Positions 4,083-40,179 are shown, counted from the first letter of the stretch. The stretch is DNA of 45,817 nt from an uncultured archaeon (GCA_964508365.1 CAZDTP010000030.1:1-45817); one strand, 5' to 3'. The notes: a model not told the origin generated them from the letters alone. Numbers and translations are program-made.

Positions 4083-4274
4083 TTATTTTTTCTTTAGTAG
4101 TAATATCAAAAGTAGGGCAATTCCAACCAAGAGGATAATAAGAGAGATTGGAATTATTTCAGATAATCCTTCCAATATTCCAATTTGAATGACTCCAAGA
4201 GTTCCAAGCGCGAAAAACAAGAAGCCGAAGAGCAAGATTATTTGTCCATTCGAGATTTTCCATTTGTTTTCTAT
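4083..4274 (-). CDS. Unannotated 63-aa two-TM membrane protein with apparent ATA start
   Basis: Open frame (I)ENKWKISNGQIILLFGFLFFALGTLGVIQIGILEGLSEIIPISLIILLVGIALLLILLLKKK*; AGGTGA SD 6 nt upstream of ATA; in-frame TGA just upstream. Confidence 0.65.
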   Translation of the reverse strand: MENKWKISNGQIILLFGFLFFALGTLGVIQIGILEGLSEIIPISLIILLVGIALLLILLLKKK

Positions 4275-4306
4275 ATTTTTTCACCTTTTCAATAATTTCT
4301 TACATT

Positions 4307-5260
4307 TCATAAATTAATCTTTTTAAAGATAGCAGGCCAAATTACAATTCCTATGACGAGTGTGATGATATAATGAAGGGCGTTCATCCAGTAAATGTCA
4401 GTATCAATTATCAAATAAATCACTAAGTAAACTATAGCGATTAATAATATACCGATAAGAATACGCAATATTACCTTCCACTTTTTATCAATGTTGTTAT
4501 TGGCATCGAAATTTACGAATTTCTCTTCAAGGGCGAATCCTATACCAAGGCCAATCATTTGCCCACCGGGGGATCCAAAATTATATTCAATTTGAAGAAA
4601 TATTTCGGTAAATAGCATTACAACCAATCCTAGTATTGCTAAGCCCAAATAGATAAGGATAATATTATGTCTGCTTGCAAAATTCTTGATTGGTGTCTCT
4701 AAAATCAAGACTACATCTAAAAGTATAATTCCAAACAGCCATCCAGTGAGTATATCACCAAACCAGTGAACTCCGAGATATAATCGTGATAATCCAACCA
4801 AAATAATAATAACTATGGATATTATCCACATGATAGCCCTTCTGCTCTTAAGTGCTATATATCCCCAGAAAGTACTCGAACTCTGAGCATGACCGCTCGG
4901 GGTACTTAAATGTGAAGCATCAATAAGGAGCCAATTTGATTCAGGAGGTCTTTCTCGTCCAATAATGCTTTTTGCGTAGAAATTGACACAATTTGATGCG
5001 ACATATACTATAAATAGATTCCTGGCTAAATTCTTGTTTACTCCCCAAAATAGTATAAAGAAGATAGCTAAATAAATCAGAGTTCCACCAAATTCAGTAA
5101 TAAATCGGAAAAAATAATCAGTGTTGACAAGAGTATCCCTGAGCATTTGATTCCAATAAAATTCAAAAAAAGCTGGTACCACTAGTATTATACCGATTGA
5201 AATTATACAAAGGATTCCGATAAGAAGCAGGATATATTTATACTGTTTATTTTTCTCCAT
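4307..5260 (-). CDS. PAP2 family membrane phosphatase
   Basis: KSIIGRERP, PSGHA and SRLYLGVHWFGD catalytic motifs; multiple TM segments. Confidence 0.92.
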   Translation of the reverse strand: MEKNKQYKYILLLIGILCIISIGIILVVPAFFEFYWNQMLRDTLVNTDYFFRFITEFGGTLIYLAIFFILFWGVNKNLARNLFIVYVASNCVNFYAKSIIGRERPPESNWLLIDASHLSTPSGHAQSSSTFWGYIALKSRRAIMWIISIVIIILVGLSRLYLGVHWFGDILTGWLFGIILLDVVLILETPIKNFASRHNIILIYLGLAILGLVVMLFTEIFLQIEYNFGSPGGQMIGLGIGFALEEKFVNFDANNNIDKKWKVILRILIGILLIAIVYLVIYLIIDTDIYWMNALHYIITLVIGIVIWPAIFKKINL

Positions 5261-5404
5261 TCTACATCGCTAATTTGATTTATGATATTCAATAAGAAGA
5301 TATTCAATATATAGTCTAATCTTTAGGTCCTAGAATACTTTAAGGTTTTTAGTTAATTAATTCTTCTTTACTATATTTAGTGTCTTTCATAATGATGATG
5401 AATA

Positions 5405-6142
5405 ATGACTGAAAAAGTATTATATATTGAGTTAAATCCTCAAGAATTTAGGGAAAGAATCTCGAAGGCTCCTATTGCTTATTTACCATTGGGAACTCTT
5501 GAATGGCATGGAAGACATATGCCTTTAGGAGCTGATGGTTTAATATCTTTAGGATTTTTTATTGAGCTGGCAAGAAAAGTTGGAGGGATTGTTCTTCCAA
5601 TGCTCTTCCTCGGACCGGACGATGTTGAACAACAAGGGGGAAGAGAGTACTATGGTATGGATATTCTGAGTTATCGAAAAAATCACCCCCAGCAATTGGA
5701 AGGAAGTGCCTATTGGGTGACAGAAGATTTTTTCAAACGAATTTTAGACGCTATTCTGACACAACTAAAAAGAGCAGGATTTAAAATAGTTGTTGCCCAT
5801 GGTCACGAGCCCTCTACGGTCTTATTTGCTAAAAATATTAAAAAGTGGAAAGAAGAACTAGGACTTATTTGTTTTACTTGTTGGAAACATGGTGAGCCAC
5901 CCAACATAGGATTGCAAACAGATCATGCTGCCGCAAACGAAACTGCTCTCATGATGGCGCTAAGACCTGAACTCGTAAATATAAAAAACCTTCCTAACGA
6001 CTTAAGTGAAAAGCCTCTTGGACTACTTGGTGAAGATCCACGCACACATGCTAGTTTTGAAGGGGGTAGAAGTATAATTGAGTTACAATTAAAAAATATG
6101 GAGAAATTACTAAAGAAAAGTTTAGAGAATCTCCAAATTTAG
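5405..6142 (+). CDS. Creatininase (creatinine amidohydrolase) family protein
   Basis: PLGTLEWHGRHMPLGAD, AHGH and DHAAANET metal-binding motifs. Confidence 0.9.
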   Translation: MTEKVLYIELNPQEFRERISKAPIAYLPLGTLEWHGRHMPLGADGLISLGFFIELARKVGGIVLPMLFLGPDDVEQQGGREYYGMDILSYRKNHPQQLEGSAYWVTEDFFKRILDAILTQLKRAGFKIVVAHGHEPSTVLFAKNIKKWKEELGLICFTCWKHGEPPNIGLQTDHAAANETALMMALRPELVNIKNLPNDLSEKPLGLLGEDPRTHASFEGGRSIIELQLKNMEKLLKKSLENLQI

Positions 6143-6168
6143 AATAAATTTAATTTTATACTTCTATG

Positions 6169-6196
6169 ATTTCCTACATTCATAGGAAATTTTTTC
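6169..6196. terminator. Hairpin plus T-tract between convergent genes
   Basis: ATTTCCTA-cattca-TAGGAAAT perfect 8-bp stem followed by a T run; lies between the convergent creatininase and GNAT stops. Confidence 0.5.
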
Positions 6197-6231
6197 CGTC
6201 CTTTTATTCCTCTTATGTTTAATTAAAATAA

Positions 6232-6852
6232 TTAATGAGCATAACGGAGGAGATACCACTGTTTAACATCAGTCTCGGGTATAATATCTTCTCTCATCAC
6301 CTCAAATCCAAACCGTTTATAGAAGTTCACATTTAATTCAGTAGAAGTCTCAAGAAATACGGGTAAAGGATTAGTATTATCAATTTTTTCAAGCATATAT
6401 TCCATCAACAGACTTCCATATCCCTTCCCTTGATGAACGGGTTCTACACCAAGCGTTTGCAGATACCAGTGATCAGCAGGAGCAAACTCTCGATGCATCT
6501 TAGAATTATATTCTTCTATTGGTTTAATTCGCTTAGAAGCTTGAATACCCATTTTATAGACTTTTGCTTTAAGCATACATCCTATGCTCATTTTTAGCTT
6601 ATAATCTTTATTAATAAATGGTAACCATACTGCTATGCCTTCCAAATTGGGAGAAGTCGCATGTGTCTCGCCGAATTTAACGCCCAAGCAACTTGTCATC
6701 TGAAAAACATATTTCATCACAGCATGCCTTTTTTCTGTGTTAGGTATATCATAAACTGAAATGGGATCATCCTTTAAAGCGCGACCCAAAACTTCACCAG
6801 CAGCTTTAATTTGAGTTTTATCTAACTTTATAATATCTTCTTTTGATATCAT
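6232..6852 (-). CDS. GNAT family N-acetyltransferase
   Basis: WYLQTLGVEPVHQGKGYGS acetyl-CoA motif A; FLETSTELNVNFYKRFGF motif B. Confidence 0.9.
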   Translation of the reverse strand: MISKEDIIKLDKTQIKAAGEVLGRALKDDPISVYDIPNTEKRHAVMKYVFQMTSCLGVKFGETHATSPNLEGIAVWLPFINKDYKLKMSIGCMLKAKVYKMGIQASKRIKPIEEYNSKMHREFAPADHWYLQTLGVEPVHQGKGYGSLLMEYMLEKIDNTNPLPVFLETSTELNVNFYKRFGFEVMREDIIPETDVKQWYLLRYAH

Positions 6853-7214
6853 ATGATTGAATTAGATTATTTCAATAAAAAGATATTTTAGACCAATATT
6901 AAATCATGTTTTTGATTTGATCCCACTAGTCTTTAAACTATAATCAAAATGCTTAATTTTAGAAAAATTCTTCTTTTTATGTAAAATGGAGTATAAGAGG
7001 ATTTTCTGAAATAGAACTTGAGAAAATTAAGCAAATAAAGGTTGGAAAGTGGGTAATGTGAGGAATTGAATTAAAAAAGATTGGAATATAATGGTTAATA
7101 AGGCACTCTGACGGTTTCTTACTTTTTCTGAATATAATTCAGAGTGTTATAAATTATTTAAAAAAGATTTTTATTCTGTAAAAAAAAAATAAAACTAATA
7201 AAATCTACAAAAAT

Positions 7215-8027
7215 GTGAAATATTTGAACGAAAAAAAAGAATCTAAAATAACTTTCTCTTATTTAAGACGATTCAACTTGATTATGGGCTTTTTACATTT
7301 AATCCAAGCCAGCATAATGATAATAATGTCTTATACAATACCTCAAATAAGGGATTTTGAGTTACCTATTACAACCTCTTACTTGTATTACAACGATCTC
7401 TTAATACCTCCAAGGTTGGTGCCTAACTACATTCAATTAACGACTGTTCCAATTGGACCATTAGTGGCTATGTTTTTACTTCTCTCAGCGATCGCTCATT
7501 TATTAATCGTATTACCCAAAGTCAATAACTTCTATAACAGAAAATTGGGAGAGGGGATTAACTACTTTAGATGGTTTGAATACGCCTTAAGTTCCTCCTT
7601 GATGATAGTTTTAATTGCGTGGTTTTTCGGAGTTTACGATCTTTCCTCTTTAATTTTAATTTTTTGTATCAACGCTACAATGAATCTTTTAGGTTTGATG
7701 ATGGAACTTCATAATCAAACAACACAGAAAACGAATTGGACATCGTTTTACATAGGAACATTTGCAGGTCTTATTCCATGGGTAATAATTCTTCTTTATC
7801 TATTTGGCAACGGGAATATTACCGAGATTCCATGGTTTGTTTGGGCGATTTTTGGATCTTACATATTATTCTTCAATACTTTCCCGATTAATATGATCCT
7901 TCAATATAAAAAAATAGGGAAATGGAAGGATTATTTGCATGGAGAAAGAGGATATATTCTACTCAGTTTGTGGTCTAAAACTCTTCTAGCATGGTTGGTC
8001 TTTGCAGGAGTATTACAACCAGCATAA
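7215..8027 (+). CDS. Heliorhodopsin
   Basis: 7 TM; TM1 His (MGFLHLIQA), TM2 His (SAIAH), RWFEYALSSSLM counterion motif, GKWKDYLHGERGY, retinal Lys in LSLWSKTLLAW; start may be the TTG at 7224 after GTGA. Confidence 0.93.
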   Translation: MKYLNEKKESKITFSYLRRFNLIMGFLHLIQASIMIIMSYTIPQIRDFELPITTSYLYYNDLLIPPRLVPNYIQLTTVPIGPLVAMFLLLSAIAHLLIVLPKVNNFYNRKLGEGINYFRWFEYALSSSLMIVLIAWFFGVYDLSSLILIFCINATMNLLGLMMELHNQTTQKTNWTSFYIGTFAGLIPWVIILLYLFGNGNITEIPWFVWAIFGSYILFFNTFPINMILQYKKIGKWKDYLHGERGYILLSLWSKTLLAWLVFAGVLQPA

Positions 8028-8142
8028 TTTAAACTCTTTTTTTTTTATTTGTTTTATGTAAAAACTTGTATTTTTATAGTATAATTTAATATTTCATAAG
8101 AAAATGGTTTTAACTTCTTGTTATAATATTAAATATGTAATA

Positions 8143-8607
8143 ATGACATATTTAAATCCTGATAAATTACAAGTTGTCTATAAAGACTCGGTTGATGAAG
8201 TCACCCTTAAATTACCTCGCAAATACACATTGACTCATTCTGATTCAACAGGAGATCTTTTTCTTACAATAGGATCCGAATATGATTTTGAACAGATTTC
8301 AAGCCTCTATACTCGCTTTATGAGGGATGAAGTTTTAGCTGAATGGCAAATGAATAATGATCTTTACGAATTACATCTATATATGCATGTCAGCGGAGGT
8401 TTTTGCTTTGGTTGGGCAAGTTTACGAAACAGAATCTTTTGCTATCATTTACCACTCGTCCTTGAAGCATTTATATATGCAGACAAGAAACTTATTGAGA
8501 AAATGCCAGAACTCGAAAACTCTCAGATTATCGTACATTTTCAATCTAAGAATAAGAAATACGACAGAATCGAGAATCATGGAAAAATTAAAGAGTTTTC
8601 TTGTTAA
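8143..8607 (+). CDS. Staygreen (SGR) family protein, Mg-dechelatase homolog
   Basis: PRKYTLTHSDSTGDLFLTIG, RDEVLAEW and LHLYMHVSGG motifs; ORF open from 8104, ATG 8143 more likely. Confidence 0.88.
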   Translation: MTYLNPDKLQVVYKDSVDEVTLKLPRKYTLTHSDSTGDLFLTIGSEYDFEQISSLYTRFMRDEVLAEWQMNNDLYELHLYMHVSGGFCFGWASLRNRIFCYHLPLVLEAFIYADKKLIEKMPELENSQIIVHFQSKNKKYDRIENHGKIKEFSC

Positions 8608-8793
8608 GAATTATAAATTCTTTACCCTTTAGGATTAACTTTTATAATTATCAAGTTTTGAAAAAAAAATTTTTTACTTAATTTGAATCGTGATTAATTG
8701 GATTAAGAAAGAAATATAAATCAATTATAAGGATAAAAGTTAAAAAATACTGTACTTAATTCACTTAGTAATTAATGCAAAAAGGAATTCGTT

Positions 8794-10215
8794 ATGAATT
8801 TAGAGAATTTATTTAAGCCAAAATCAATGGCAGTAGTAGGAATTAGCAAAAAAAATCCATTGAGTCCAGGGAGAATAATTTTTGTAAAGAATGTTTTTGA
8901 AATGGACGTAAAAGTTTATGGAATCCATCCAGAGGGAGGAGAGGTTGATGGGATAAGCTTATATACTCGATTGGATGAGCTGCCTGAAATACCTAATCTT
9001 TTAGTAATTGCCATCTCGGCAGAAGATACTTTAGGTTATGTGCAAGCTTGCGCAGACTTACATATCCCTGCGTGCATTATTATTGGGGGAGGATTTGCTG
9101 AGATAGGATCGGAAGGAGTTAAACGGCAAGAAAAGTTAGTACAAATTGCAAATGATAATGCAATCGCAGTATTAGGGCCAAATTGTATAGGAGTATATTC
9201 CCCACCTTTACTGGATACAATCTTTATGCCAACGGAGCGGATTACACGCCCTCCTAAAGGGACAGTTGCGCTAATCAGTCAATCTGGAGGTGTTTTAGTA
9301 GATCAATTCTTTCATAAATTCAATGAAATTAACATAGGGGTTTCAACTGCTGTTTCTATAGGTAATCGTGCGGTGGTCGATGAAACTATGTTATTAGAAT
9401 ACTTTAGTAAATATGATAAAGAAACATCTAATATTGCGTTTTATTTGGAGGGTTTTAAGTCGAGCAGAAAGTTTTTAGAGTTGGCGAGAGAATCAAACGA
9501 CACAGTTATAACCTATTTTGGAGGGTTATCCGAGCAAGGTAAGAGAGCTACTATGTCCCATACTGCGAGTTTATCAGGAAACGATAAAGTCCTCTCTGCT
9601 GCATTAAAGCAAAATTTAATAATTCAACCAAGAACAGAACTTGAGATGCTTACATATTTAAAGTTATTTGATGTCCTGTCTCATAAAAAAAAACCTTTTG
9701 ATTATAATAAAATTGTACATGGAAATGTCGCTATTTTATCAATTTCAGGAGGACATGGAGTCATATGTACCGATCTGCTCAAGGTATATCATCTATCTAG
9801 TGTGGAATATACAGAAGAAGAAAAACAAGATATGCAACAATTAGTAAATCCCGTTGCGCGTAATATAGCCTCATTTAATAACCCTATAGACCTTACTGGC
9901 TCTGCTAAGGACGAAGATATTGAAAATATTATTCAGTATTTATCAAAAATTGAACGCATTGAATGTATAATTCTTCTTATCTTACCCTATACTCCTTCAA
10001 TCTCGTTTCAGATTGGGAGAAAGATAGCGAATAGAGTAACAACTGATAAAAAGCCATTAGTGTGTTTTATACCTTACATTCAAAAATATGGACTGATAAT
10101 AGAATCTTTAGAGCTTTCAAATGTTCCTGTTTTTCACAGTATCGAAGAAGCTGTTCAAGCGGTCTCAGCTCTTAAAATGTTGACACGAATTTATAATATT
10201 AAACAAAAAAAGTAA
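8794..10215 (+). CDS. Acyl-CoA synthetase (NDP-forming) alpha-type subunit / CoA-binding protein
   Basis: GPNCIG, ALISQSGG, SIGN, YLEG, SHTASL phospho-His motif, NPIDLTG. Confidence 0.88.
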   Translation: MNLENLFKPKSMAVVGISKKNPLSPGRIIFVKNVFEMDVKVYGIHPEGGEVDGISLYTRLDELPEIPNLLVIAISAEDTLGYVQACADLHIPACIIIGGGFAEIGSEGVKRQEKLVQIANDNAIAVLGPNCIGVYSPPLLDTIFMPTERITRPPKGTVALISQSGGVLVDQFFHKFNEINIGVSTAVSIGNRAVVDETMLLEYFSKYDKETSNIAFYLEGFKSSRKFLELARESNDTVITYFGGLSEQGKRATMSHTASLSGNDKVLSAALKQNLIIQPRTELEMLTYLKLFDVLSHKKKPFDYNKIVHGNVAILSISGGHGVICTDLLKVYHLSSVEYTEEEKQDMQQLVNPVARNIASFNNPIDLTGSAKDEDIENIIQYLSKIERIECIILLILPYTPSISFQIGRKIANRVTTDKKPLVCFIPYIQKYGLIIESLELSNVPVFHSIEEAVQAVSALKMLTRIYNIKQKK

Positions 10216-10254
10216 AAAATTTTGGGATTAAATTCAGAATATAAAATTGTTCGT

Positions 10255-11679
10255 TTATTTCTCATAATCTGTGAATTGAGGGATATATCCCTTTTCCATT
10301 AGCAATTTAAATTGACCCTGAGAATTGTCTATAATATTCTTAGATTTTGAGAGTAGTTCCTCTTCAGAGAGATTAATTTTAGCAACGCCTTGCTCAATTG
10401 CTTTCAATCCTACAGCAGTAGCTTGTCTAATAAACGCATTTTCATATTGCATAGTAGGGAGAATACAATTATCCACAAGGCAACCTTCAATCTCATCTAC
10501 TAAATTTGCGAGAGTATGTGATGCTGCAATACACATTTCATCAGTTATAGTAGTAGCACGTACATCTAAAGTTCCTCTAAATACTCCTGGAAAACAGAGT
10601 GAATTATTTACCTGATTAAGAAAATCAGAGCGACCGGTTGCAACGATTCTAGCTCCAGCTTCTTTGGCGTCCCATGGAAAAATCTCCGGAATTGGATTAG
10701 CTAAAGCGAAAACTATTGCGTCATCTGTCATTTTTGAAATCCATTCTTTTTTGATAACATTTGGTCCCGGAACGCTTGATGAGATGAGGATATCTGCTCC
10801 TTCTAAAGCCTTACCACAATCTCCTCTAATTTGTTCTTGATTACTTATTTTAGCGACTTCACATTTATAATCTTGTGGACATTGTAAATCAGTTCGCTCT
10901 TTGAACAAGATTCCTTTACTATCGACGAAAATTGAGTTAGTTATATTAAATCCGTCAGCTTTTAGTAACCGATAAATCCCAAAATTAGCAGCGCCTATTC
11001 CGTTGAACACTATTTTAACTTGTGCTTTTTTCTTTCCAACAATTCGTAGAGAATTCATTAATCCTGCTAGAGTCACACAGGCAGTTCCCTGTTGATCGTC
11101 ATGCCAAACAGGAATATTTATGTCTGGATCACTGCGTAATTTATCCAAAACCGTAAAGCATTTTGGGTTGCTAATATCTTCTAAATTTATACCACCAAAT
11201 GTAGGCTGAACCATTTTTACAAATTCTATAATATCTTCGGCGTCACAACATTCTTTTTGACCAATACATAGTGGAAACGCATCAACTCCACCTAAATATT
11301 TAAAAAGAAGAGCTTTACCTTCCATTACTGGCAATGCTGCTTCAGGACCAATATTACCAAGTCCTAAAACTCTACTTCCGTCACTGACGACAGCAACATA
11401 ATTCCACTTACTTGTATAATCATATACCTTTTCTTTATCCTGAAAGATTTCAGAGGAAGGTGCGGCTACTCCTGGCGAATACCAAATTCCAAAATCATCA
11501 TAATTCCGAACTTGACAACGTGGAATAACTTGAATCTTTCCTCTGTAGAATTTATGCATTCTAATCGCATTTATTCCAGGAATTTTTGTTTTTTTTAGGA
11601 GTTGTTCTTTAGTTTTTTTTTCCATGATAGATATTAAGCTAAATGATATTAAAATTAAATTGATATTGGAATATAACAT
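10255..11679 (-). CDS. NAD(P)-dependent malic enzyme
   Basis: YSPGVA, DGSRVLGLGNIG, PVMEGKALLFK, INLEDI, HDDQQGT, ALANP, ATGRSD, NQVNNSLCFPG; probable start ATG 11625. Confidence 0.95.
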   Translation of the reverse strand: MLYSNINLILISFSLISIMEKKTKEQLLKKTKIPGINAIRMHKFYRGKIQVIPRCQVRNYDDFGIWYSPGVAAPSSEIFQDKEKVYDYTSKWNYVAVVSDGSRVLGLGNIGPEAALPVMEGKALLFKYLGGVDAFPLCIGQKECCDAEDIIEFVKMVQPTFGGINLEDISNPKCFTVLDKLRSDPDINIPVWHDDQQGTACVTLAGLMNSLRIVGKKKAQVKIVFNGIGAANFGIYRLLKADGFNITNSIFVDSKGILFKERTDLQCPQDYKCEVAKISNQEQIRGDCGKALEGADILISSSVPGPNVIKKEWISKMTDDAIVFALANPIPEIFPWDAKEAGARIVATGRSDFLNQVNNSLCFPGVFRGTLDVRATTITDEMCIAASHTLANLVDEIEGCLVDNCILPTMQYENAFIRQATAVGLKAIEQGVAKINLSEEELLSKSKNIIDNSQGQFKLLMEKGYIPQFTDYEK

Positions 11680-11947
11680 AAAGAAAGATTTAATTAATGC
11701 GCTACTTCTTGACGAAGATATCTTTAAAATCTTTTAGTCAATAATTAGCTATTTTTAGATCAGTGAAGTATCAAGTCGCTCATTGCATAAAGTATTGTAT
11801 TTTTGGATATAGTGATTATTCCTTCCAAATAAGAAAACTCCACCCTTTCATTGGGCTCACAGGATTGATAGAGTTACTATTTAAATATTATCAAGGGATT
11901 TCTTTTGATAATAAATCATCTATTTTATGTAATAAATCAGTTAAATC

Positions 11948-12238: not shown

Positions 12239-12533
12239 ATATCACACTCATACTGATTTCTTGGGCAATTTTTTCTACTCTTATACTTCTAATTCCTTCG
12301 GGAGTTAAAATATCCACTTTCTTATTGAACAAATTTTCTAAATAATCAGCCAAATCCATAAAAGCTAATCCAATTGATTTTTCAAATTCTACAATTATGT
12401 CAAGATCACTTTCTTCTTTTGGCTTCCCTTTAGCAAAAGATCCAAAGAGCCCAATTTTTTTAATTTTAAATTCTTTTTTAAGAAAAGACAGTTCTTCTCT
12501 TAATTTATTAATAACTTCTTCACTCGTCAACAT
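12231..12533 (-). CDS. mntA: Minimal nucleotidyltransferase antitoxin (MntA-like)
   Basis: GLFGSFAKG...SDLDIIV (GSX10DXD); overlaps the start of the HEPN gene. Confidence 0.9.
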   Translation of the reverse strand: MLTSEEVINKLREELSFLKKEFKIKKIGLFGSFAKGKPKEESDLDIIVEFEKSIGLAFMDLADYLENLFNKKVDILTPEGIRSIRVEKIAQEISMSVIYV

Positions 12534-22612: not shown

Positions 22613-22891
22613 GATTCCAAGTATTTATAGAATAAATCTTTATTTTTGTTTGAAAAACAATTCCTTAAACTTATTTTATTTAAATTTGGATAATTCTTTT
22701 TTATTACTATTATTAAAAAAATATATATTTATGTTCCTCTTTGAACCAGCTGTAACTCTTACTATATGAGTATACTATCTGGTCCCGTAAAATACACTAT
22801 TAAAAGGAAACTACTACGACAGAGACAAAAAGCAGAGGGATTAAATAACTAATAAAAAATAGAACATTATAATTCTAAAGGTGAATAAAGT

Positions 22892-23122
22892 ATAAATAAA
22901 AGCGATTTAGAGAAATTTTTTATCAGATTGGAGGAATTATTAGAAACTAATGGGTGTAATGCGCGCGATTTAACCAATGCAGAAATTATATTGAAAGAAA
23001 TGAATATACCTAAAGACGAGCAGGAAGAATTTTTAGAGGATTGTAGATATTCTGGCGGATTTTGCGATTGTGAAATTTTTTTAAACTCCGAAGATTATTT
23101 GAGGGAGAAATACGATAAATAA
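22892..23122 (+). CDS. DUF2695-like small protein
   Basis: GGFCDCEIFLN motif plus upstream Cys; canonical TTG at 22928, but frame is open from ATA 22892, 7 nt after AGGTGA. Confidence 0.75.
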   Translation: MNKSDLEKFFIRLEELLETNGCNARDLTNAEIILKEMNIPKDEQEEFLEDCRYSGGFCDCEIFLNSEDYLREKYDK

Positions 23123-29209: not shown

Positions 29210-29917
29210 TTAACTTTTTACCCCTAAGTAGAATAGTAAAGCGCTTATAATCATTGCAGCTCTTATAAATATTAAACTAATACCAGGATCAAATAAACCG
29301 TCTAAAATTCCCCCTGCTATATATAAAAAAGCTCCTAGGGACAAATAATAAAATCTTCTTCTGATTGTACCAGTTGCCTGTATACCTTTTCTTAAGAAGC
29401 CAAATCCGTCAAGAATAAGGATGGATATTAGAAAGATTAAAGCTAGGATCGAAACGACTGATTCAAGGATAAGACTGTCGTTAATGAGATCGCTACCTAA
29501 AGGGTCAGGAGTAGTGTAGGTTAAAGCACTAGAGGGGTCTAAGAATAATAGGACATCGAAAATAATGCCTAAGATTAAATAAATTCCAAAAATTAACCAC
29601 TTTTTTTTGGGAATAATCAATTCGGCTCCAAAAAACATGCCAAATATAGCAACCCCAGGAAACCACATCCAATTAATTAGACCAATAAATCCTGAAGAAT
29701 TATCAATATTTGTTTGAGTTATGAGGACTGTTACGAAGTCTAAGAAATCTCCTGTAAAAATAAGACCAGCGAAAAAGTAAGTTAAACCGAGATATAATAG
29801 AGGATTTGATTGTGTTTTTCTTGCTTTATAAATCGCAAATAATCCGAAAAGAAGAGAGAAGAGAAAAACACCAGAGGCCGTAAGCCCATTTAACCAACCT
29901 ATAGGAGTGAGTGTTAT
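29210..29917 (-). CDS. Polytopic membrane protein (about 235 aa) with non-canonical start
   Basis: Track ORF 29210-29668 extends 83 more open, hydrophobic codons (ITLTPIGWLNGLTASGVFLFSLLFG...) with no ATG/GTG/TTG; in-frame TGA at 29924-29926. Confidence 0.75.
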   Translation of the reverse strand: MTLTPIGWLNGLTASGVFLFSLLFGLFAIYKARKTQSNPLLYLGLTYFFAGLIFTGDFLDFVTVLITQTNIDNSSGFIGLINWMWFPGVAIFGMFFGAELIIPKKKWLIFGIYLILGIIFDVLLFLDPSSALTYTTPDPLGSDLINDSLILESVVSILALIFLISILILDGFGFLRKGIQATGTIRRRFYYLSLGAFLYIAGGILDGLFDPGISLIFIRAAMIISALLFYLGVKS

Positions 29918-31553: not shown

Positions 31554-31739
31554 TTAATGTAATACCTTAGAAGTAGATTTAAGTTTATTTAATCCCAATT
31601 GATATTCCGAACACATTTTGTAATTAGGAAAATCACAAACTTCTTTAGCTTTTGGAAGATGGCACGAACGAGTAAAGGGGCACGATAATAATGATCCCTC
31701 CATTAGCTCAAATTCCTTGTTCATTTTATACCTCCTCAA
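31554..31739 (-). CDS. Small Cys-rich protein (possible zinc-binding)
   Basis: GAGGAGGT SD before MNKEF (ATG 31724); CPFTRSC...CDFPNYKMC, four Cys. Confidence 0.65.
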   Translation of the reverse strand: MRRYKMNKEFELMEGSLLSCPFTRSCHLPKAKEVCDFPNYKMCSEYQLGLNKLKSTSKVLH

Positions 31740-31902
31740 ATGAAAAGAGTATACTTTCTTTTCAGATAGTAAGTATCAATCGAATATTATTAAATGTAAC
31801 TGTTATAATCTCTAAATTCCTCAAATTATTGTTAATTTGTATAACGATTTGTTTATACAAAGAAGAAGAGCTGTGAAGTCTTTAATGTATTGATGCTCTT
31901 CT

Positions 31903-33102
31903 TTATTTCCTCATATCAAGAAAACCGCCGGATCTCATCAATTTGCACGGTTTTAAATATTTTCTCCCTGTTAATTCTGCGAACTCGTCCAATTTTACAA
32001 CAAGTTGTTTGTAGTTCTTTTTACCCATAGAGAAGGGACCAGGTGAACGATAACCAGTTGATACAGCTTTATCAATTATTTTATAATTACTAACACAGCC
32101 TTCTTCTAGCATCCTACAGCCTTCATTTAATTGGATTGCTATTAGGAGTTCGATATCGACCAGGCCTGCTGTTTTTGAGCGATCTATACTAGGTTCCTTA
32201 TTTTGAGACCAATCATAGAAGCCCCGACCGGTCTTTTGTCCAAGATTGTTTTCATTAATAAGTTTCGTAAACAATTTGTGAGGGGCAAAGTCTGGGGACA
32301 GAGTATCTTCAAAGTATTTCATCGCGTTAAAAACCGTGTCTATTCCTATATAATCACATAAGCAAAAAATACCCATAGGCATAAAATCGATTACATCAGC
32401 ATCGAGTTGCTCAAAGGGGATATTTCTAGCGATAGCTTGTTCAATAAGCCAATTTATATATATTTCAATAGTGCCTACGATTCTATTTGCGATGAATCCA
32501 GGAGATTCTCTTTGAAGTTCAATAAGTAATCTTTTTCCCTCTAAGCTTGGTAACTTATGGCCAACTTCTGTCGCAATTTTTAGAGTATCTTCTGAAGTTT
32601 TTTCTCCTTTCGTGATTTCGATTAATTTATTTTCGAGTGGGGCAAAAAAATGCATTCCGATGACCTTTTCAGGGCGTCCCGAAGCTTTTCCAATTTCTGT
32701 AATACTCATTGTTGAGGTATTAGTAGCGAATATTGTATGTTCGGGACAATATTGCCCTAATTTTCTAAAGACCTCTTTTTTAATGTTCATAACTTCAGGA
32801 ACAGCTTCAATAACAAAATCTACATTTTTAACAGCATTTTGTAAGTTTATTTCTTTTAGTAACCTTTTTACGAGGATTTCCGTTGTAATTTTATCTTCTA
32901 ATTGCCCTTCTTTTTCAAGAACTTTTAAACCAGTCGTGGGATCGTTGACAATTCTATCCACGGCCTTATCGATTAATTCTATGCTAAGATCGTTAAGGAT
33001 CACCTTGCTAAAACCAGCCATCAGCGCTACTTGGGCGATTGCGTGGCCTTGTATTCCTGTCCCTATTATTGCAATGTTTTTTACATCAAAAATATCTTGC
33101 AT
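31903..33102 (-). CDS. 3-hydroxyacyl-CoA dehydrogenase family protein
   Basis: GTGIQG Rossmann motif, EAVPE, FATNTS, GMHFF, PGFIANR, GQKTGRGFYDW. Confidence 0.92.
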   Translation of the reverse strand: MQDIFDVKNIAIIGTGIQGHAIAQVALMAGFSKVILNDLSIELIDKAVDRIVNDPTTGLKVLEKEGQLEDKITTEILVKRLLKEINLQNAVKNVDFVIEAVPEVMNIKKEVFRKLGQYCPEHTIFATNTSTMSITEIGKASGRPEKVIGMHFFAPLENKLIEITKGEKTSEDTLKIATEVGHKLPSLEGKRLLIELQRESPGFIANRIVGTIEIYINWLIEQAIARNIPFEQLDADVIDFMPMGIFCLCDYIGIDTVFNAMKYFEDTLSPDFAPHKLFTKLINENNLGQKTGRGFYDWSQNKEPSIDRSKTAGLVDIELLIAIQLNEGCRMLEEGCVSNYKIIDKAVSTGYRSPGPFSMGKKNYKQLVVKLDEFAELTGRKYLKPCKLMRSGGFLDMRK

Positions 33103-33362
33103 TTGAATCCAACTATTAATTGGTATTTATAGTTTAAGAGAATTCACTATTTTTTAAATTATTCGCTCTCTACCTTAATCTCAAATGCATAAACTGAAAA
33201 ATCAATGACTCTCGTAATTTTACCTTATTAACAGCATAAGGCTCAACTAATTATATTGCGATTTCCTATTAAAATATTAAAAAGGATTTTAAAACACTTG
33301 ATTTATAGATTTTATACAGATTTACTCTCAAATTGAGCATAACGATAAAAGAAGGATGAAAT

Positions 33363-34460
33363 GTGTCACTAAAAGAAAAAAATAGCAACAGTAGCATGCG
33401 AAAGTTAGAACTTAAGAATCAGACGGTTTTTTTCAAATCGGCAGAATACATGTCTGAATTAGAGGATGAATCTATCGATTTAGTAATAACTTCTCCTCCT
33501 TACAATCGTGGAAAAACATATTCTTCTGATTTTGGTGAGTTTCATAATGATAAGATGGTAGATACAGAATATTACTCTTTCTTAACTACTATTTGGTCTG
33601 AATGTTATAGAGTAGCAAAAAGCAGTGCTTTATTCTTTCTGAATATTGGTGATTCTGCGGGAGATCAAGGGAAATCTGAAAAAGTTGCTCAGTCTGCGGA
33701 AAACGCATCTTGGAAACGAATTCAAGATATAGTTTGGGTTAAATCTTTTCTTGGGAAAGGGCACTACACTCCATCAGGAGGAAATCAACGATTAAATAAT
33801 CTCTGGGAACATATTTTCCTCTTTGCAAAAAATACTAAAGAATATAAAATTGACCCAAAAGCGATAGGGATACCGTATACTGATAAATCCAACATTGGGA
33901 GATATTCTGACACAGATTTAAGAGATCCTGGCAATGTGTGGTTGATTCCCTACGTAAAAACAACAGGAGCAACGATTAAAAAAGGTCACGAAGCTCCATT
34001 TCCAATAGGTCTTCCGTATAAATGTATTAAAATGGTTCCAAATGTAAAAACTGTCTTAGATCCCTTTGGGGGGACTTGTTCAACATTAGCTGCGAGTTTG
34101 AAATTAGGCATAAGAGGTTATGCTTACGAAAAATATCCACGCATCGAAGTTATTAAATCAAGAATTCTCGAAGGAGAAGATTATTACGAGAGTGAAGAAA
34201 ACCTAATACCTCATTTAGAATTATCTCTAAAAATGTTAAGCGAAATGTATTCAAAAATGTCTTTAAACATTCCATTAATAAAAACTAAAGTTGCTTTTAC
34301 AAGTTTTCAAATCTTAAACGAGGTCTTAAATAAATTAAATATTAATAATTCCTTTAAATTAAGCTTAGAAAAAAGGATAGCAAATTATAAATTTTATGTA
34401 GGAAAAAAAAAATCGCAAAAAAATAAGTATCACCAAAAAAAACTAGACTTTGGTTCATAA
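33363..34460 (+). CDS. Site-specific DNA methyltransferase (N4-C/N6-A, beta class)
   Basis: DLVITSPPYN catalytic motif IV precedes the VLDPFGG SAM-binding motif I; HEAPFP. Confidence 0.88.
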   Translation: MSLKEKNSNSSMRKLELKNQTVFFKSAEYMSELEDESIDLVITSPPYNRGKTYSSDFGEFHNDKMVDTEYYSFLTTIWSECYRVAKSSALFFLNIGDSAGDQGKSEKVAQSAENASWKRIQDIVWVKSFLGKGHYTPSGGNQRLNNLWEHIFLFAKNTKEYKIDPKAIGIPYTDKSNIGRYSDTDLRDPGNVWLIPYVKTTGATIKKGHEAPFPIGLPYKCIKMVPNVKTVLDPFGGTCSTLAASLKLGIRGYAYEKYPRIEVIKSRILEGEDYYESEENLIPHLELSLKMLSEMYSKMSLNIPLIKTKVAFTSFQILNEVLNKLNINNSFKLSLEKRIANYKFYVGKKKSQKNKYHQKKLDFGS

Positions 34461-34646
34461 TTCTCCTTAAATAATTTTTAAATTTTCAGCTTTAATCCAA
34501 AGCACTAAAAAACACTGATAATAAATAAAAATTAATCCAAATTCTTAAGAAGAACAAAAATATATACTGACTGTTAAACAATATTAAAACCTAAAACCTA
34601 TGCTTTATTAAATGAGTTTTATCAAAAATTAAGGATTCGACTAAAT

Positions 34647-35240
34647 ATGGCAGGACTAACATATACTCCAGCTGAATTTAACACAATAATTACTATGTTA
34701 GGGTGTTTATGTGCTACAGTACAAGCAGCAACTGGAGCATACGCAGGCTATAAGAAGAAAAAAATCTCGCTATTAAAAACAAATGACGTATTATTTAGGA
34801 CTCATAGGGCTTTTGGTGGATTTGCGACAACTTTATACTTTCTAGGTTTGTTTGCTGGACTTACAGGCTTTAGTGGAGCTATATTTTTCGGAGAACCCCC
34901 TTTTGAAATACTTGATTTTAGTTTCAACTTTCATGTGTGGCCTAGCTTTGCAATTGCAGTCATAGTTATCTTGAAAACTTACTTATCATATTTTAGAAAA
35001 CCTTTAATTTACAAACACTATAGTTGGTTAGGAGGTGCTACTTTTATCGCGTGGTCTTATAATTGGATTAGTTCTTCTTTTTCCTATTATTTAAGAACAT
35101 TGCCATCAAACCCACAACATCCTCCTCCTACTTACTTACTACCGTTTGAATTGTTATGGCTTCAAATTATTCTCCCGTTTATTATAGGAGGGGTAATAGG
35201 TTTCTTTATATTAAGAGTTGCGGATAAAAAAGAAAGGTAA
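34647..35240 (+). CDS. Hypothetical membrane protein with membrane-proximal His residues
   Basis: Five hydrophobic segments; RTHRAFG, NFHVWP. Confidence 0.6.
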   Translation: MAGLTYTPAEFNTIITMLGCLCATVQAATGAYAGYKKKKISLLKTNDVLFRTHRAFGGFATTLYFLGLFAGLTGFSGAIFFGEPPFEILDFSFNFHVWPSFAIAVIVILKTYLSYFRKPLIYKHYSWLGGATFIAWSYNWISSSFSYYLRTLPSNPQHPPPTYLLPFELLWLQIILPFIIGGVIGFFILRVADKKER

Positions 35241-35409
35241 ATGCAGAGAGGACATTAATAAAGTCACAAAATGCATAGGATTGGGTAATTGTTAGTTTAT
35301 TCGGCAAATATTCGCTCGTTTATATAGAGAGGGAATTTTTACATTATAAGAAAAAGTTTTTTATAATAAGCTGTAGTCTTTTAATGTAAAAGCATAAGAG
35401 GTGTGTTTA

Positions 35410-35778
35410 ATACCGAGATTAGTACATTTTGAAATGAATGTAAAGGACGTTCATAAGACAATATCGTTTTATGAAGATATATTTGGTTGGAGGTTTCAAA
35501 AATGGGATGGCCCTATGGATTATTGGCTTATTATGACTGGTGACGAAAACGAACCAGGGATCGATGGGGGGTTAGGTTACGGAGAAGAAGGCTTCCCAAA
35601 AATGGTAAACACTATTGATGTAGATGATATTGACGACATAATTAAGAAAATTGAAAGTAAAGGTGGCAAGATAGTTAAACCAAAACACGCAGTTCCTGGT
35701 GTGGGCTGGTTAGCTTACTTTAAAGATTCTGAGGGTGTGATGTCAGGAATTATGCAAAATGATCCTGGAGCTAAATAA
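35410..35778 (+). CDS. VOC (glyoxalase/bleomycin resistance) family protein
   Basis: PRLVHFE, FYEDIFGW, GIDGG, PGVGWLAYFKDSEG; in-frame GTG at 35401 is part of the GAGGTG SD, and ATA 35410 lies 6 nt after it. Confidence 0.9.
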   Translation: MPRLVHFEMNVKDVHKTISFYEDIFGWRFQKWDGPMDYWLIMTGDENEPGIDGGLGYGEEGFPKMVNTIDVDDIDDIIKKIESKGGKIVKPKHAVPGVGWLAYFKDSEGVMSGIMQNDPGAK

Positions 35779-35830
35779 TTTTATTTTTTTTATACAAATC
35801 TAAAAAGTGCATAAGAGATATTAATAACTT

Positions 35831-37495
35831 TTATTTTTTCAATATTCCAAGCTTAATTTTTTCTTGCTCGACGAGTTCACGCCGTAATATTTTTCCAGAG
35901 CCTGATTTTGGAATTTCGTCAACAAATTCAACCTCTCTAATTTTTTTATAAGCAGAAATCCTTTCAGCAACCCAATCTATGATTTCTTGTTCAAGGATTT
36001 TTCCTTTCGACTCTGTTTTTAAAATGATGAAAGCTTTCGGAATTTCTCCTATATCTAACTCTTTTGATGGTTTGCCTATTACTGCTGCATCAAAAACATG
36101 AGGATTTTTAAATAGTAAATCTTCAAGTTCTGCAGGTGCGATACTCCAGCCTTTATACTTAATCATTTCTTTTATCCGATCAAGGAGGTATTCGTATTCT
36201 TCTTCGTCTATGTATGCCATATCGCCCGTTCTTAACCATTTTTCTCCAGTTTTAGGATCTGTCCAAAAGGCACCTTCGGTAGCCTCTGGTCGGTTCCAAT
36301 AGCCTTTCATAACTTGAGGTCCCTTTATTACTAGCTCACCAACATCTCCGCGTTTAGGTAGTTCTTCATTCGTTTCTAAGTCAATTATCTTATGAAAAGT
36401 ATCGGGAATTAGAGTTCCTTGGGATTCCATCTTAGGTCGAGACATAGGATTAACGGCAACTACAGGGGAAGCTTCGGTTAATCCCCATCCGTGTTGGATG
36501 GTTACATTTTTAGCATTACACTTCTTTTTTGCTAATTTATAAAACTTTTCAAGAAGCTCGAGCGGGATTGGGGCTCCACCATTATTGACTACTTTAAGAT
36601 CCTCCCAATCATATCCTTTAACTCCCGGCTCTTCGAGGTGTCTAACTACTGCGAGGAATATTGGAGGTACACATAGGCTGTATGTAACTTTATATTTTTC
36701 TACCAATTCACAAAATTCTTTTACCACGAATCGAGGTGTTACAACCTGTGATGCACCTAACCAAATCGCTTGGTTCATACAAACACTAAGGCCATAGATA
36801 TGGTATAGTGGTAGCACAGTCATGGCGATGTCAAATTCGCATAACTCGAACATTGGACTTGCTTGGACTACGTTCGATACCATATTGTAGTGTGTTAGCA
36901 TTGTTCCTTTTGGTAGACCTGTAGTTCCACTTGTATACACCAGTGCTGCGAGATCTTCTTTAGGGTTGAATTCATATTCTGGAGGATCCGGTTTTGTGTC
37001 ATTCATTAGTTCTGTCCATCCTATCGTTCCCTCCATTTTTTTTAAGGGTTCATTGGTTTCACTTGATTCAATTATTATAACGGTTTTAAGGTTTGTTTCA
37101 TCTTTGATTGCAGCCAGAGTTGGGTATAATGGCTGAAAAACCACGATTGTTTCTGCTCCTGAGTCGTTAGCTTCGTATTTGACTTCAGTTTCTTTAAATA
37201 AGGGATTCATAGGGACCATTATTGCACCCGCTTTCTCTAATCCATAAAATGCAATTTCCCATTGGATTGAATTGGGGGCATATAAAGCAACCCTATCGCC
37301 TTTTTTCACGCCTAGTTTTTTTAATGCTGTAGCGAATATGTCTACTTGCTCTTTAAACTGTTTGAAAGTCATTTCCATAGGGTAAAGAAAAGCTAGTTTC
37401 TCAGGAAATCTTTCAGCTGTATCCTCTAATACTTTATGGATTGGAATTATGGGATAATATAGATGACCTCTTTTGAATTTAACCAATTCTTGCAC
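35831..37495 (-). CDS. Long-chain fatty acid-CoA ligase (AMP-forming)
   Basis: YTSGTTGLPKG, GWGLTE, LRTGD, IKYKG, PKSGSGKILRR; probable TTG start at 37486, 6 nt after GAGGTG. Confidence 0.93.
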   Translation of the reverse strand: MQELVKFKRGHLYYPIIPIHKVLEDTAERFPEKLAFLYPMEMTFKQFKEQVDIFATALKKLGVKKGDRVALYAPNSIQWEIAFYGLEKAGAIMVPMNPLFKETEVKYEANDSGAETIVVFQPLYPTLAAIKDETNLKTVIIIESSETNEPLKKMEGTIGWTELMNDTKPDPPEYEFNPKEDLAALVYTSGTTGLPKGTMLTHYNMVSNVVQASPMFELCEFDIAMTVLPLYHIYGLSVCMNQAIWLGASQVVTPRFVVKEFCELVEKYKVTYSLCVPPIFLAVVRHLEEPGVKGYDWEDLKVVNNGGAPIPLELLEKFYKLAKKKCNAKNVTIQHGWGLTEASPVVAVNPMSRPKMESQGTLIPDTFHKIIDLETNEELPKRGDVGELVIKGPQVMKGYWNRPEATEGAFWTDPKTGEKWLRTGDMAYIDEEEYEYLLDRIKEMIKYKGWSIAPAELEDLLFKNPHVFDAAVIGKPSKELDIGEIPKAFIILKTESKGKILEQEIIDWVAERISAYKKIREVEFVDEIPKSGSGKILRRELVEQEKIKLGILKK

Positions 37496-37655
37496 CTCTC
37501 AAGCTTATGTTATTTTTTTCTTTTATAATTTATCAATTTTAATAGAATTCGTTTCAATTACGATGAAATGCATTTATTTTATTTATATAAAAGTTTAATG
37601 CAAATGAAAGTACTGTTTAATTATTAATTAATTAGGAACATTATTTCACAAAACA

Positions 37656-39611
37656 ATGGAATATATTAAAATCTTAAAAAGCCAACCTGGGGAAGAACTT
37701 TTTCTTCTAGGGAACATGGCCATTGCTCGTGGCGCTTTGGAAAGTGGTATAAATGTTTACACATATTATCCGGGGACTCCCAGTTCTGAAATTGGAGCTT
37801 TTTTTACGGAACTATTTAAAGTGACAGAATTGAATTGGGTAGAAAGTAGCGTTAACGAGAAGGTCGCAATTGAAGTTGCGGGTGCTGCTTATGCTCGAGG
37901 GGCAAAGGTTATGGTTGGTATGAAAAACGTGGGATTGAATGTTGCTTCAGATCCCTTATTTGCTCTTGCTACTACGCACCCAAGAAATGAAAGTTCCGCT
38001 ATAGTTGTTTTAATTGCCGACGATCCTCAACAGTATTCAAGTGCCGTTGAAATGGATTCAAGATATTACTTGAAGCTATTAAAAATCCCCGCTTTGGAAC
38101 CAAGCAACCCTCAAGAGTGTTTGGAATATACTAAACATGCGTTCGAAATATCAAGGGATTTAAAAATTCCTGTTATTTTGCGGTTGGTAACAATGGTGGC
38201 TCACGCAAGGAACAATGTTAAATTAGGAGAAGTTATACCATCTGAAATTGATGAGAGTTTTGATTTATCTCCTGAGGTAAATGTAGCGTCAAGACTCTAT
38301 TTCTTAGATTTGAAACAAGATCAGATATATAATAGGATGAATCGAGCATTAATAATGTCAGAGAAAAGTTCTTTAAATAGAGTCGAATATGAAAATGTGT
38401 CAAACAATTTCGATTTAGGGATTATTACAAGTGGCGTATCCTATAGTTATATACTCGAAGCTCTAGATTCTCTTAACATAAAAGCACCTATTCTTAAACT
38501 TGGCTTCATAAACCCTCTTCCTGAAAGGAAAATCGTTAAGTTCCTTAAACAGTTTAAACAAGTATTGGTCGTAGAAGAAAATGACGCGTACATCGAAACA
38601 GAAGTATTAGCGATTGCTCAAAAGAATGGCATTCAAACGAAAATACACGGGAAAGATCCATTTTCTTATTCAAAAGAAAGTTCATTATTGAATTTTGTTG
38701 GGGAATTAAATCCAACTGAAGTTGCTCTTGCGTTAATAAAATTAACTAATCTAAAACCAAAAATAAACCTCAAACAAATTAAAGAGAAAAAGTATAAAAC
38801 AGTTAGAAGGAAACCCACATTATGCCCTGGCTGTCCTTACGGTGCAATTGGATATGCTTTAAAGAAAGCGGTCAAGAAATTAAAGTCAGACTCAGGAAAA
38901 GAAATTTACTTTTATCAAGATATTGGGTGTTATACGCTTCTATCTTTCCCACCGTATTCTTTTGCTAATGTGAAGTATTGTATGGGATCGAGCATCGCTT
39001 TAGCTCAGGGAGTTGCGCACACTGACGACAGCTTGAATATAGCCATTATAGGGGATGGTACTTTTTTTCATTCTGGAATACCAGCTTTAATAAACGGGGT
39101 CCACAATAAAGCACCAATTTTAGTATTGATTCTAGATAATGGTTGGATCGGGATGACAGGACAACAACCCCATCCAGGAAGTGATATTCGCTATTATCAG
39201 GAAGGAATCTATAAGGAAAAAGTAGATTTAAGGAGACTTCTACAAGGCACTGGTGCAAATGTCAGTGTAATCACTTATCAAAAGGGAAATAAAGAGAATT
39301 ATCTCGATAACCTGGAAGATTTAATCTACGAAAAAGGTCAAAGTGTTTTAGAAAAAAAGGATATGCAAGTTATTGTAATTGAAGATGAATGCATCCAGAA
39401 ATATATTCAAAGAAACACGCTGGAAGTAAGGTATGTAGACGAAGGGTTATGCAACAATTGCGGTTTGTGCTATAATCAATTTAACTGTCCCGCGTTAAAT
39501 AAAAAAAACGATCACGCTCATATTAATTCAAACGAGTGCTTAGGGTGCGGTATCTGTGAAGATTTATGTCCAAACAATGCAATATTAGGAGGAGATAATA
39601 ACGAATACTAA
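37656..39611 (+). CDS. iorA: Indolepyruvate:ferredoxin oxidoreductase alpha subunit
   Basis: GNMAIARG, YPGTPSSEI, NEKVA, CPGCP, DIGCY, GDGTFFHSG TPP motif, two C-terminal 4Fe-4S Cys motifs. Confidence 0.93.
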   Translation: MEYIKILKSQPGEELFLLGNMAIARGALESGINVYTYYPGTPSSEIGAFFTELFKVTELNWVESSVNEKVAIEVAGAAYARGAKVMVGMKNVGLNVASDPLFALATTHPRNESSAIVVLIADDPQQYSSAVEMDSRYYLKLLKIPALEPSNPQECLEYTKHAFEISRDLKIPVILRLVTMVAHARNNVKLGEVIPSEIDESFDLSPEVNVASRLYFLDLKQDQIYNRMNRALIMSEKSSLNRVEYENVSNNFDLGIITSGVSYSYILEALDSLNIKAPILKLGFINPLPERKIVKFLKQFKQVLVVEENDAYIETEVLAIAQKNGIQTKIHGKDPFSYSKESSLLNFVGELNPTEVALALIKLTNLKPKINLKQIKEKKYKTVRRKPTLCPGCPYGAIGYALKKAVKKLKSDSGKEIYFYQDIGCYTLLSFPPYSFANVKYCMGSSIALAQGVAHTDDSLNIAIIGDGTFFHSGIPALINGVHNKAPILVLILDNGWIGMTGQQPHPGSDIRYYQEGIYKEKVDLRRLLQGTGANVSVITYQKGNKENYLDNLEDLIYEKGQSVLEKKDMQVIVIEDECIQKYIQRNTLEVRYVDEGLCNNCGLCYNQFNCPALNKKNDHAHINSNECLGCGICEDLCPNNAILGGDNNEY

Positions 39612-40179
39612 TATATATACTATCGTAATTACAGGTTTAGGGGGACAAGGTTTAGTTAGGTTCTTACAAATTTTAGGATATAGCTTGATGCGAAAAGGAT
39701 ACAAGGTAATAACTTCTGAGAAACACGGTCTAAGCCAGAGGGGAGGAAAGGTAACCTGCTTCCTTCGTTTTGGAGAAAAGATCGCAGCCCCGATACCTAT
39801 GATAGGATCAGCAGATATGATAATTGCTACTGAAAAGGCCTGTATTTTAGATGTATTAGAATATGCAAAACCTGATCGAAGTTCTAGGCTGATTGTAGCA
39901 ACTTATGAGAAAGAAACTCAAAATAATGAATATCCTTTAGAAGTAAATTTATCAAAAGCCCTATATGAGAATTCGGATAATGTCCATATTGTTCCAGTAA
40001 TGCAAATAGTTGATAAATTTAAGAATCTCAGAATTATAAATACTATTATTTTAGGGTATATCATCAGATTCTTACCTATAGCTGAGGAGGATCTATTAGC
40101 ATCAATAAATCAACATTTTAAAGGAAAGGTTTTAGAATTAAATCAAAAAACATTTGATGAAGGAAGAAATTTAAAATAA
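39598..40179 (+). CDS. iorB: Indolepyruvate oxidoreductase beta subunit (non-canonical start)
   Basis: IVITGLGGQG N-terminal motif (39622-39651) lies upstream of the first TTG/ATG (39685/39688); HGLSQRGG, ADMIIA; AGGAGGAG SD before ATA 39598. Confidence 0.88.
   Translation: MTNTNIYTIVITGLGGQGLVRFLQILGYSLMRKGYKVITSEKHGLSQRGGKVTCFLRFGEKIAAPIPMIGSADMIIATEKACILDVLEYAKPDRSSRLIVATYEKETQNNEYPLEVNLSKALYENSDNVHIVPVMQIVDKFKNLRIINTIILGYIIRFLPIAEEDLLASINQHFKGKVLELNQKTFDEGRNLK

Follow-up and report, generated by a model that had tools for sequence, protein, structure and literature searches.

Near-cognate start codons positioned by Shine-Dalgarno motifs as a probable habit of a genus of Loki-type Asgard archaea

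Standard gene finders allow translation to start at ATG, GTG and TTG only. In Escherichia coli, pcnB starts at AUU. The bacterial infC gene, which encodes IF3, also starts at AUU and controls its own translation (Butler et al. 1987, cited in PMC4705826). The citing review presents the infC AUU and the weak start of eIF1 as cases of autoregulation and states that aIF1 of Saccharolobus solfataricus rejects AUU complexes in vitro (PMC4705826). Among the putative alternative initiation sites found by ribosome profiling in Haloferax, about 30% are near-cognate codons (PMC7261190), and reviews hold that Shine-Dalgarno (SD) motifs are not prevalent in Lokiarchaea (PMC7531240, PMC12993045). In a literature that left out most subscription journals, we came across neither a description of near-cognate starts in Asgard archaea nor one of an aIF1 initiated at AUU. 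Here we describe a stretch of 45,817 nucleotides (GCA_964508365.1 CAZDTP010000030.1:1-45817; hereafter the window), which is contig C30 of the genome of an uncultured Loki-type Asgard archaeon (G000; 4.07 Mb, 149 contigs, 32% GC) and in which six genes appear to begin at near-cognate codons, that is, at codons other than ATG, GTG or TTG. We suggest, with a probability of about 0.72, that initiation in these genes is positioned by the SD motif at AUA (4274, 22892, 29917 and 35410), ACG (39601) and AUU (1917), and that such starts are a habit of the genus, found in about 3% of its conserved genes and mostly AUU.

The original prediction had flagged five ATA codons in the window (sites 1 to 5), each behind an SD motif at a spacing like that of ordinary starts nearby, and all five were found in the sequence with the positions and spacers described, as were the canonical comparators (ATG 3535, ATG 31439 and TTG 37486). 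Each flagged ATA is in frame and lies 1-3 codons downstream of the stop codon that opens its open reading frame (ORF). Orthologs were sought for each site in the genus and order, codons around the N-terminus were compared, and all window ORFs with orthologs in syntenic contigs of seven relatives were aligned. This alignment revealed that about 30 window genes conserve an ATG, GTG or TTG start, and that the exceptions are the flagged sites. The codon homologous to the orthologs' canonical start is ATA at 4274, 22892, 29917 and 35410, ACG at 39601 and ATT at 1917. The flagged ATA 39598 fails this homology, so the predicted ATA starts held at four sites and gave way at the fifth to ACG 39601. The genes concerned are as follows.

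Site 1, 4083..4274, minus strand: small membrane protein of 63 codons; start ATA 4274-4272, SD AGGTGA 4286-4281, 6-nt spacer.
Site 2, 22892..23122, plus strand: DUF2695 protein of 76 codons; start ATA 22892, SD AGGTGA 22879-22884, 7-nt spacer.
Site 3, 29210..29917, minus strand: multi-pass membrane protein of 235 codons; start ATA 29917, SD GTGA 29927-29924, 6-nt spacer.
Site 4, 35410..35778, plus strand: VOC/glyoxalase-family protein of 122 codons with a PF00903 match; start ATA 35410, SD GAGGTG 35398-35403, 6-nt spacer.
Site 5, 39601..40179, plus strand: IorB-like subunit of the POR family with a PF01558 match; start most likely ACG 39601-39603, SD GGAGGAG 39588-39594.
Sixth case, 1222..1917, minus strand: ABC-2-permease-like membrane protein of 231 codons; start ATT 1917, SD GGAGGTGA 1931-1924, 6-nt spacer.

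At canonical ATG starts of this genome the aligned spacing of an SD 5-mer is 4-9 nt, and all six near-cognate sites fall at an aligned spacing of 5-7, behind an SD of at least 5 bases at five of them and of 4 bases at site 3. The ortholog of the site 1 gene in G017 (93% amino acid identity) has ATA behind an identical SD, while G030 and G035 have ATG at the same codon; the next in-frame canonical codon in the window is TTG 4235, 13 codons in. At site 2 the homologous codon is ATA in G011, TTG in G002 and G017, and ATG in G014, and the conserved TTG 22928 lies 12 codons in, with the PF10905 match starting upstream of it. The site 3 protein has no Pfam match, and its homologs match across the whole 237-residue frame; the homologous codon is ATA in G011 (92%) and ATG in G014 (87%), with ATG one codon upstream in G012, and no ATG, GTG or TTG occurs over 83 codons after ATA 29917. 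Thus the conservation check proposed for the ATA codons recovered the same ATA in a second species (G017 or G011) at sites 1-3. At site 4, orthologs in G008, G004, G002 and G012 have ATG at the same codon behind GAGGTG and 6 nt, and an in-frame GTG (35401) lies inside the SD of the window gene. No canonical start preserves the conserved N-terminus at site 3, in IorB or in the 1917 gene; at sites 1, 2 and 4 a TTG or GTG lies 3-13 codons away. Separately, an ATG-TAA start-stop (35385-35390, plus strand) precedes the glyoxalase start by about 20 nt; the orthologous leaders of G008 and G002 have it too, and in G004 it reads ATGTAT.

Downstream of the near-cognate codon, we detected purifying selection at sites 1, 2 and 3 and in IorB; for site 4, there is only one ATA-bearing population. 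Between the window and G017, the site 1 gene differs by 14 synonymous and 7 nonsynonymous changes (p = 4e-5), and between the window and G011, the site 2 gene differs by 3 synonymous and 0 nonsynonymous changes (p = 0.005). For the two ATA-bearing species at site 3 (window and G011), the counts are 24 synonymous to 27 nonsynonymous over the whole gene (p = 1.5e-4) and 4 to 2 over the 82 codons before the first ATG (pN/pS 0.16, p = 0.03). These comparisons are between species that share the near-cognate codon, and the regions that would be untranslated under canonical starts only are therefore protein-coding in these lineages. It is scarcely credible that the codons are sequencing or assembly errors, or that an altered initiator tRNA or code reads AUA as a regular methionine start. 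Consensus sequences of metagenome-assembled genomes (MAGs) can carry errors, but the same ATA codons appear in MAGs of other species (G011 and G017), and independent assemblies, one of a JGI metagenome and two of Logan runs, match the window at sites 3 and 4 with 100% identity, ATA codons included; site 3 is identical in all three, and a JGI contig is identical at site 4. The source samples are JGI 3300031585 and the runs SRR9700687 and SRR9710542.

The fifth site is a gene pair, in which the upstream member has an ordinary start:

37656..39611, plus strand: IorA-like subunit with TPP and 4Fe-4S domains (Pfam matches); canonical ATG conserved in 7 genomes.

The 3' end of IorA overlaps the IorB start and holds the IorB SD, with IorB beginning 8 nt before the IorA stop (TAA 39609-39611). 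The first canonical codon of the IorB frame is TTG 39685, which lies past the GxGGQG motif. The flagged ATA 39598, 3 nt after GGAGGAG (39588-39594), was ruled out as the start: it stands too near the SD, and the remaining genomes with ACG have ACA, GCG or GCA in its place. ATA 39595, though conserved, follows GGAGG by 2 nt. ACG 39601 has an SD spacing equal to that of the orthologs' ATG, so that IorB most likely starts at this ACG, as judged from codon homology and spacing. At least six MAGs (the window, G008, G004, G014, L103 and L106) have ACG at the homologous codon, and ATG is found there in G002 (the closest, 80%), G015, G013, G016, G012, G010, G018 and L107-L110. Because ATG is found in the closest genome G002, in G015 and in more distant orthologs, the IorB start codon has changed more than once. 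Over the 27 codons before the first canonical codon, three tested pairs of ACG-bearing genomes differ by 6-8.5 synonymous and 3-5.5 nonsynonymous changes (pN/pS 0.14-0.25, p = 0.001-0.005).

The arrangement of this pair also bears on recoding as a source of the apparent starts, whether by A-to-I editing at AUA and C-to-U editing at ACG, by TGA read-through before site 3, or by a +1 frameshift from IorA into IorB within the 20-nt overlap behind GGAGG, an explanation that we consider very improbable. The IorB frame does open inside the IorA 3' end beside the SD-like GGAGGAG, but the overlap contains no slippery sequence, and IorB is normally a separate protein, because its orthologs carry ATG at the same codon. 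Read-through finds a point in its favor at site 3, where the window and G011, which both have ATA, carry an in-frame ATG-TGA start-stop (29929-29924, minus strand) two codons ahead of ATA 29917, and G014, which has ATG, lacks it; across the genome, however, ATG-stop mini-ORFs precede near-cognate starts (15%) no more often than canonical starts (16%). ACG-to-AUG editing occurs in plant organelles; to our knowledge, no such mRNA editing is known in archaea.

The sixth case, ATT 1917, was absent from the five sites of the original prediction and was recovered by a genome-wide SD screen. Its product is ABC-2-permease-like as read from the N-terminal sequence alone, and the gene overlaps the stop codon (1910-1908) of the upstream gene at 1908-2882. 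The homologous codon is ATT behind the same SD in G014 and G012, and ATG in G023, G021 and G018 as well as in paralogs.

The screen considered ORFs of at least 80 codons with an SD 5-mer near the 5' boundary and no ATG, GTG or TTG from the upstream stop to 10 codons beyond, and yielded 152 start-less ORFs, compared with 441 ORFs that have a canonical codon at the SD. The near-cognate codons scored were ATA, ATT, ATC and ACG, and one of these was in frame at an aligned spacing of 5-7 in 61 of the 152 (40%), against backgrounds of 13% at in-frame spacings of 9-32 (p = 2e-14) and, for out-of-frame codons at the same spacing of 5-7, of 5.9% (p = 1e-18). The excess at spacing 5-7 for each codon was as follows.

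ATA: 17/152, against 46/1216 at spacings 9-32; 2.9-fold, p = 3e-4.
ATT: 24; 2.7-fold, p = 5e-5.
ATC: 10; 2.5-fold, p = 0.02.
ACG: 10; 6.4-fold, the highest, p = 4e-5.

No enrichment at this spacing was seen for the control codons AAA, AAT, TTA, GAA, ACA and ACT. All four near-cognate codons are enriched, so no single editing activity explains them. Under looser screen settings the excess, counted for spacing 5-7 only, amounted to 42-82 genes, and the signal was replicated in a congener (G008, 1.5 Mb), where 26 of 73 start-less ORFs carried such a codon against a background of 11% (p = 4e-7). A complete genome from another genus of the order, sampled over 0.4 Mb (G026:C1:1-400000; L221-L240), gave 4 of 11 against a background of 8%, with three of the four being ATA, in a sample too small to decide; given this weak positive signal, the genus was dropped as a negative control. 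The enrichment of ATA at SD-optimal spacing that the original prediction expected was therefore found genome-wide, and SD-positioned initiation beyond ATG, GTG and TTG is the best reading for the lineage as a whole, but two of its narrower points did not hold as put: relaxation is not limited to the third codon position, with ACG the most enriched codon, and ATA is not the main codon involved.

Among 910 ortholog pairs between G000 and G008, we counted 28 near-cognate starts per genome (about 3.1% in each). Twenty are common to the two genomes and SD-led in each, and a further 8 occur in G000 only and 8 in G008 only. ATT is the commonest near-cognate start, and ATA makes up 6 of the 28 in G000, or about 0.7% of genes. 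ATA starts were shared with G008 in 3 of 10 cases and other near-cognate starts in 16 of 25 (p = 0.13), and a younger age for ATA starts than for ATT, ATC and ACG starts is accordingly a trend only. The frequent TTG starts remarked on by the original prediction are borne out by the SD-led canonical starts of G000, which include an unusually high 25% TTG (109/441) along with 8% GTG.

The gene for the initiation factor aIF1 (G000:C25:11557-11907) provides a further case, and bears out the suggestion that this factor would be involved. No canonical codon precedes its zinc knuckle, and 30 of 30 genomes of the genus carry ATT at codon 4, with a conserved GGTTGTGA ahead of it. The N-terminus of the solved M. 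jannaschii aIF1 aligns 2 residues after this ATT, and the start is ATG (G024, G021) or TTG (G026, G019) in other genera of the order. Because essential aIF1 depends on ATT, near-cognate initiation must work in these cells.

Turning to the initiator itself, we detected a single initiator-like tRNA, with a GGG/CCC anticodon stem and a CAT anticodon at the DNA level, where base modifications are not visible. AUA is a regular start in many mitochondria, but the anticodon found here argues against an altered code: neither a changed anticodon nor a second or UAU-anticodon initiator was found in the genome, where two GGG..TAT..CCC matches are not tRNAs and the remaining GGG...CCC matches are T-arms or non-tRNAs. 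In the alignments examined, ATA aligns with isoleucine elsewhere. An intron interrupts the initiator tRNA gene (G000:C25, about 38518-38640, minus strand) at a place other than the anticodon loop. With aragorn and Rfam, an incomplete inventory of only 27-29 tRNA genes was recovered from a genome rated 100% complete, and many tRNA genes of G000 are probably split or intron-rich.

We suggest that the SD duplex with the 16S rRNA 3' end would bring the codon, spaced as at ordinary starts, into the P site, that the ordinary initiator Met-tRNA (anticodon CAU) would pair with it despite one mismatch, and that the proofreading factor aIF1 would pass a fraction of such complexes. The SD is slightly longer at near-cognate than at canonical starts (5.72 vs 5.48 bases, p = 0.04). 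Two candidate enablers were rejected: translational coupling, as the stop of the upstream gene falls in the interval from -25 to +15 nt for 26% of the near-cognate starts and for 35% of the canonical ones that are SD-led, and ATG-stop mini-uORFs, for which the frequencies are those given above. As in infC-like autocontrol, the fidelity factor's own gene here carries a near-cognate start, and synthesis of aIF1 from AUU may thus exert negative feedback on stringency. A more tentative idea, and one we would sooner doubt than hold, is that the level of aIF1, set through its conserved AUU, in turn sets the translation of some hundred AUU-, AUA-, AUC- and ACG-initiated genes, and that these genes would make up a regulon with initiation fidelity as its readout.

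In a genome of 32% GC, AUA starts are easily acquired, since a G-to-A transition turns ATG into ATA, and the ATA codons could instead be products of mutational decay. Under this explanation, recent and mildly harmful G-to-A changes in ATG starts would leave genes weakly expressed or reliant on TTG 4235, TTG 22928 and GTG 35401 until eventual reversion or loss, with no adapted AUA initiation. All four ATA sites have ATG or TTG in the next-closest species, a canonical codon lies nearby at three of them, ATA starts recur in G008 at a lower rate than the other near-cognate starts do, and all four genes are small, with the ortholog of site 4 alone present in the syntenic G008 contigs compared. We nevertheless regard decay as unlikely. 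Purifying selection has acted on sites 1 and 2 after the codon change, and at site 3 it has acted between two ATA-bearing species over a stretch in which no canonical codon is available; moreover, in-frame ATA is enriched at SD-optimal spacing across the genome, three ATA starts are common to G000 and G008, and aIF1 depends on ATT. The original prediction had named ATG in close relatives as a sign of errors or of recent disabling changes. The G-to-A changes are indeed recent, because more distant relatives have ATG or TTG at these sites, but they have not disabled the genes, which are intact and under purifying selection in the sister species that retain ATA.

Initiation at these codons, the use of methionine and the efficiency of the process are inferred, and several observations weigh against SD-positioned near-cognate initiation. 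The TTG or GTG codons near sites 1, 2 and 4 could serve instead of the ATA or as well as it, the SD of site 3 is short, and the site 4 ATA was seen in this population only. The tendency of ATA starts to be younger also fits mildly harmful mutations in transit, and the enrichment statistic has no truly negative control genome; the 0.4 Mb from the other genus was weakly positive as well. Finally, six cases among about 40 window genes make up a share several times the genome-wide one of about 3%. Most of the six are short genes or have no G008 ortholog in the contigs compared and hence fall outside both screens, so the true near-cognate rate is probably higher than 3%.

The N-terminal truncation in annotation that was predicted to follow from such starts is seen in public gene calls, which give the products as follows.

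Site 2: 64-aa TTG form.
Site 3: 152-aa truncation.
Site 4: 125-aa GTG form, where the relatives' proteins have 122 aa.
1917 gene: 217 aa from GTG 1875, or 198 aa from a later start.

TTG-start forms of IorB and of the site 1 protein are not on record in public collections. Within the window, 83 residues comprising 2-3 membrane helices are lost from one protein and at least 14 from another, and two further starts are misplaced to a nearby TTG or GTG. At about 3% of genes, each Loki-type proteome used in studies of eukaryogenesis would carry about 100 such errors. Cultured Lokiarchaeia may share the trait, as hinted by the 0.4-Mb sample of the other genus. In eukaryotes, AUG selection is guarded by eIF1, to which aIF1 is homologous. 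A lineage whose aIF1 gene, along with many others, relies on near-cognate starts would offer a natural system for the evolution of start stringency and its feedback before scanning.

Other start changes and a variable region were also observed. In G012 (C55; L071/L072), a small gene corresponding to 40193-40420 (minus strand) begins with ATT in place of the ATG of the window and G002, and the gene corresponding to 31554-31775 (minus strand) has AAG at the ATG position, with ATG two codons later. The region 4083-6142, which holds the site 1 gene and ORFs at 4307-5260 (minus strand) and 5405-6142 (plus strand), has no match in the stretches of G002 and G008 that hold orthologs of both flanking genes, and the site 1 gene is 93% identical to that of G017, yet G017 is only 77% identical at site 2. 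This region may be an accessory island that moves between species.

Among known systems, mitochondria start translation at AUA and AUU, and AUA is also an internal methionine codon there, read by a modified tRNA-Met; AUA as a start is common to both, whereas the present genome has an ordinary initiator gene, and ATA elsewhere in the alignments read stands opposite isoleucine. Bacterial infC is similar in having a near-cognate AUU or AUA behind an SD and in placing the gene of the fidelity factor itself under a near-cognate start, with feedback on stringency (PMC4705826). It is unlike the present case in that E. coli has a handful of such genes compared with about 3% here, that aIF1 is a homolog of eIF1 unrelated to IF3, and that feedback is a suggestion here. 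Autoregulation of eukaryotic eIF1 resembles what we propose in that a factor of the aIF1/eIF1 family would limit its own synthesis through a weak start signal, but eIF1 uses AUG in a weak Kozak context with scanning, whereas aIF1 here has AUU behind an SD-like motif (PMC4705826). Haloferax volcanii shows archaeal ribosomes at near-cognate codons, though these are alternative or internal sites set aside by the authors as possible false positives, not the sole starts of conserved genes (PMC7261190). The 30S subunit of Saccharolobus solfataricus involves the same factor and the same codon class, and without aIF1 an archaeal 30S complex can form on AUU (PMC4705826, consistent with PMC6237735); the finding was made in vitro with a crenarchaeon for which AUU starts are not reported as common, whereas in this Loki-type genus AUU appears to be the commonest near-cognate start and to lie at the head of the aIF1 gene itself.

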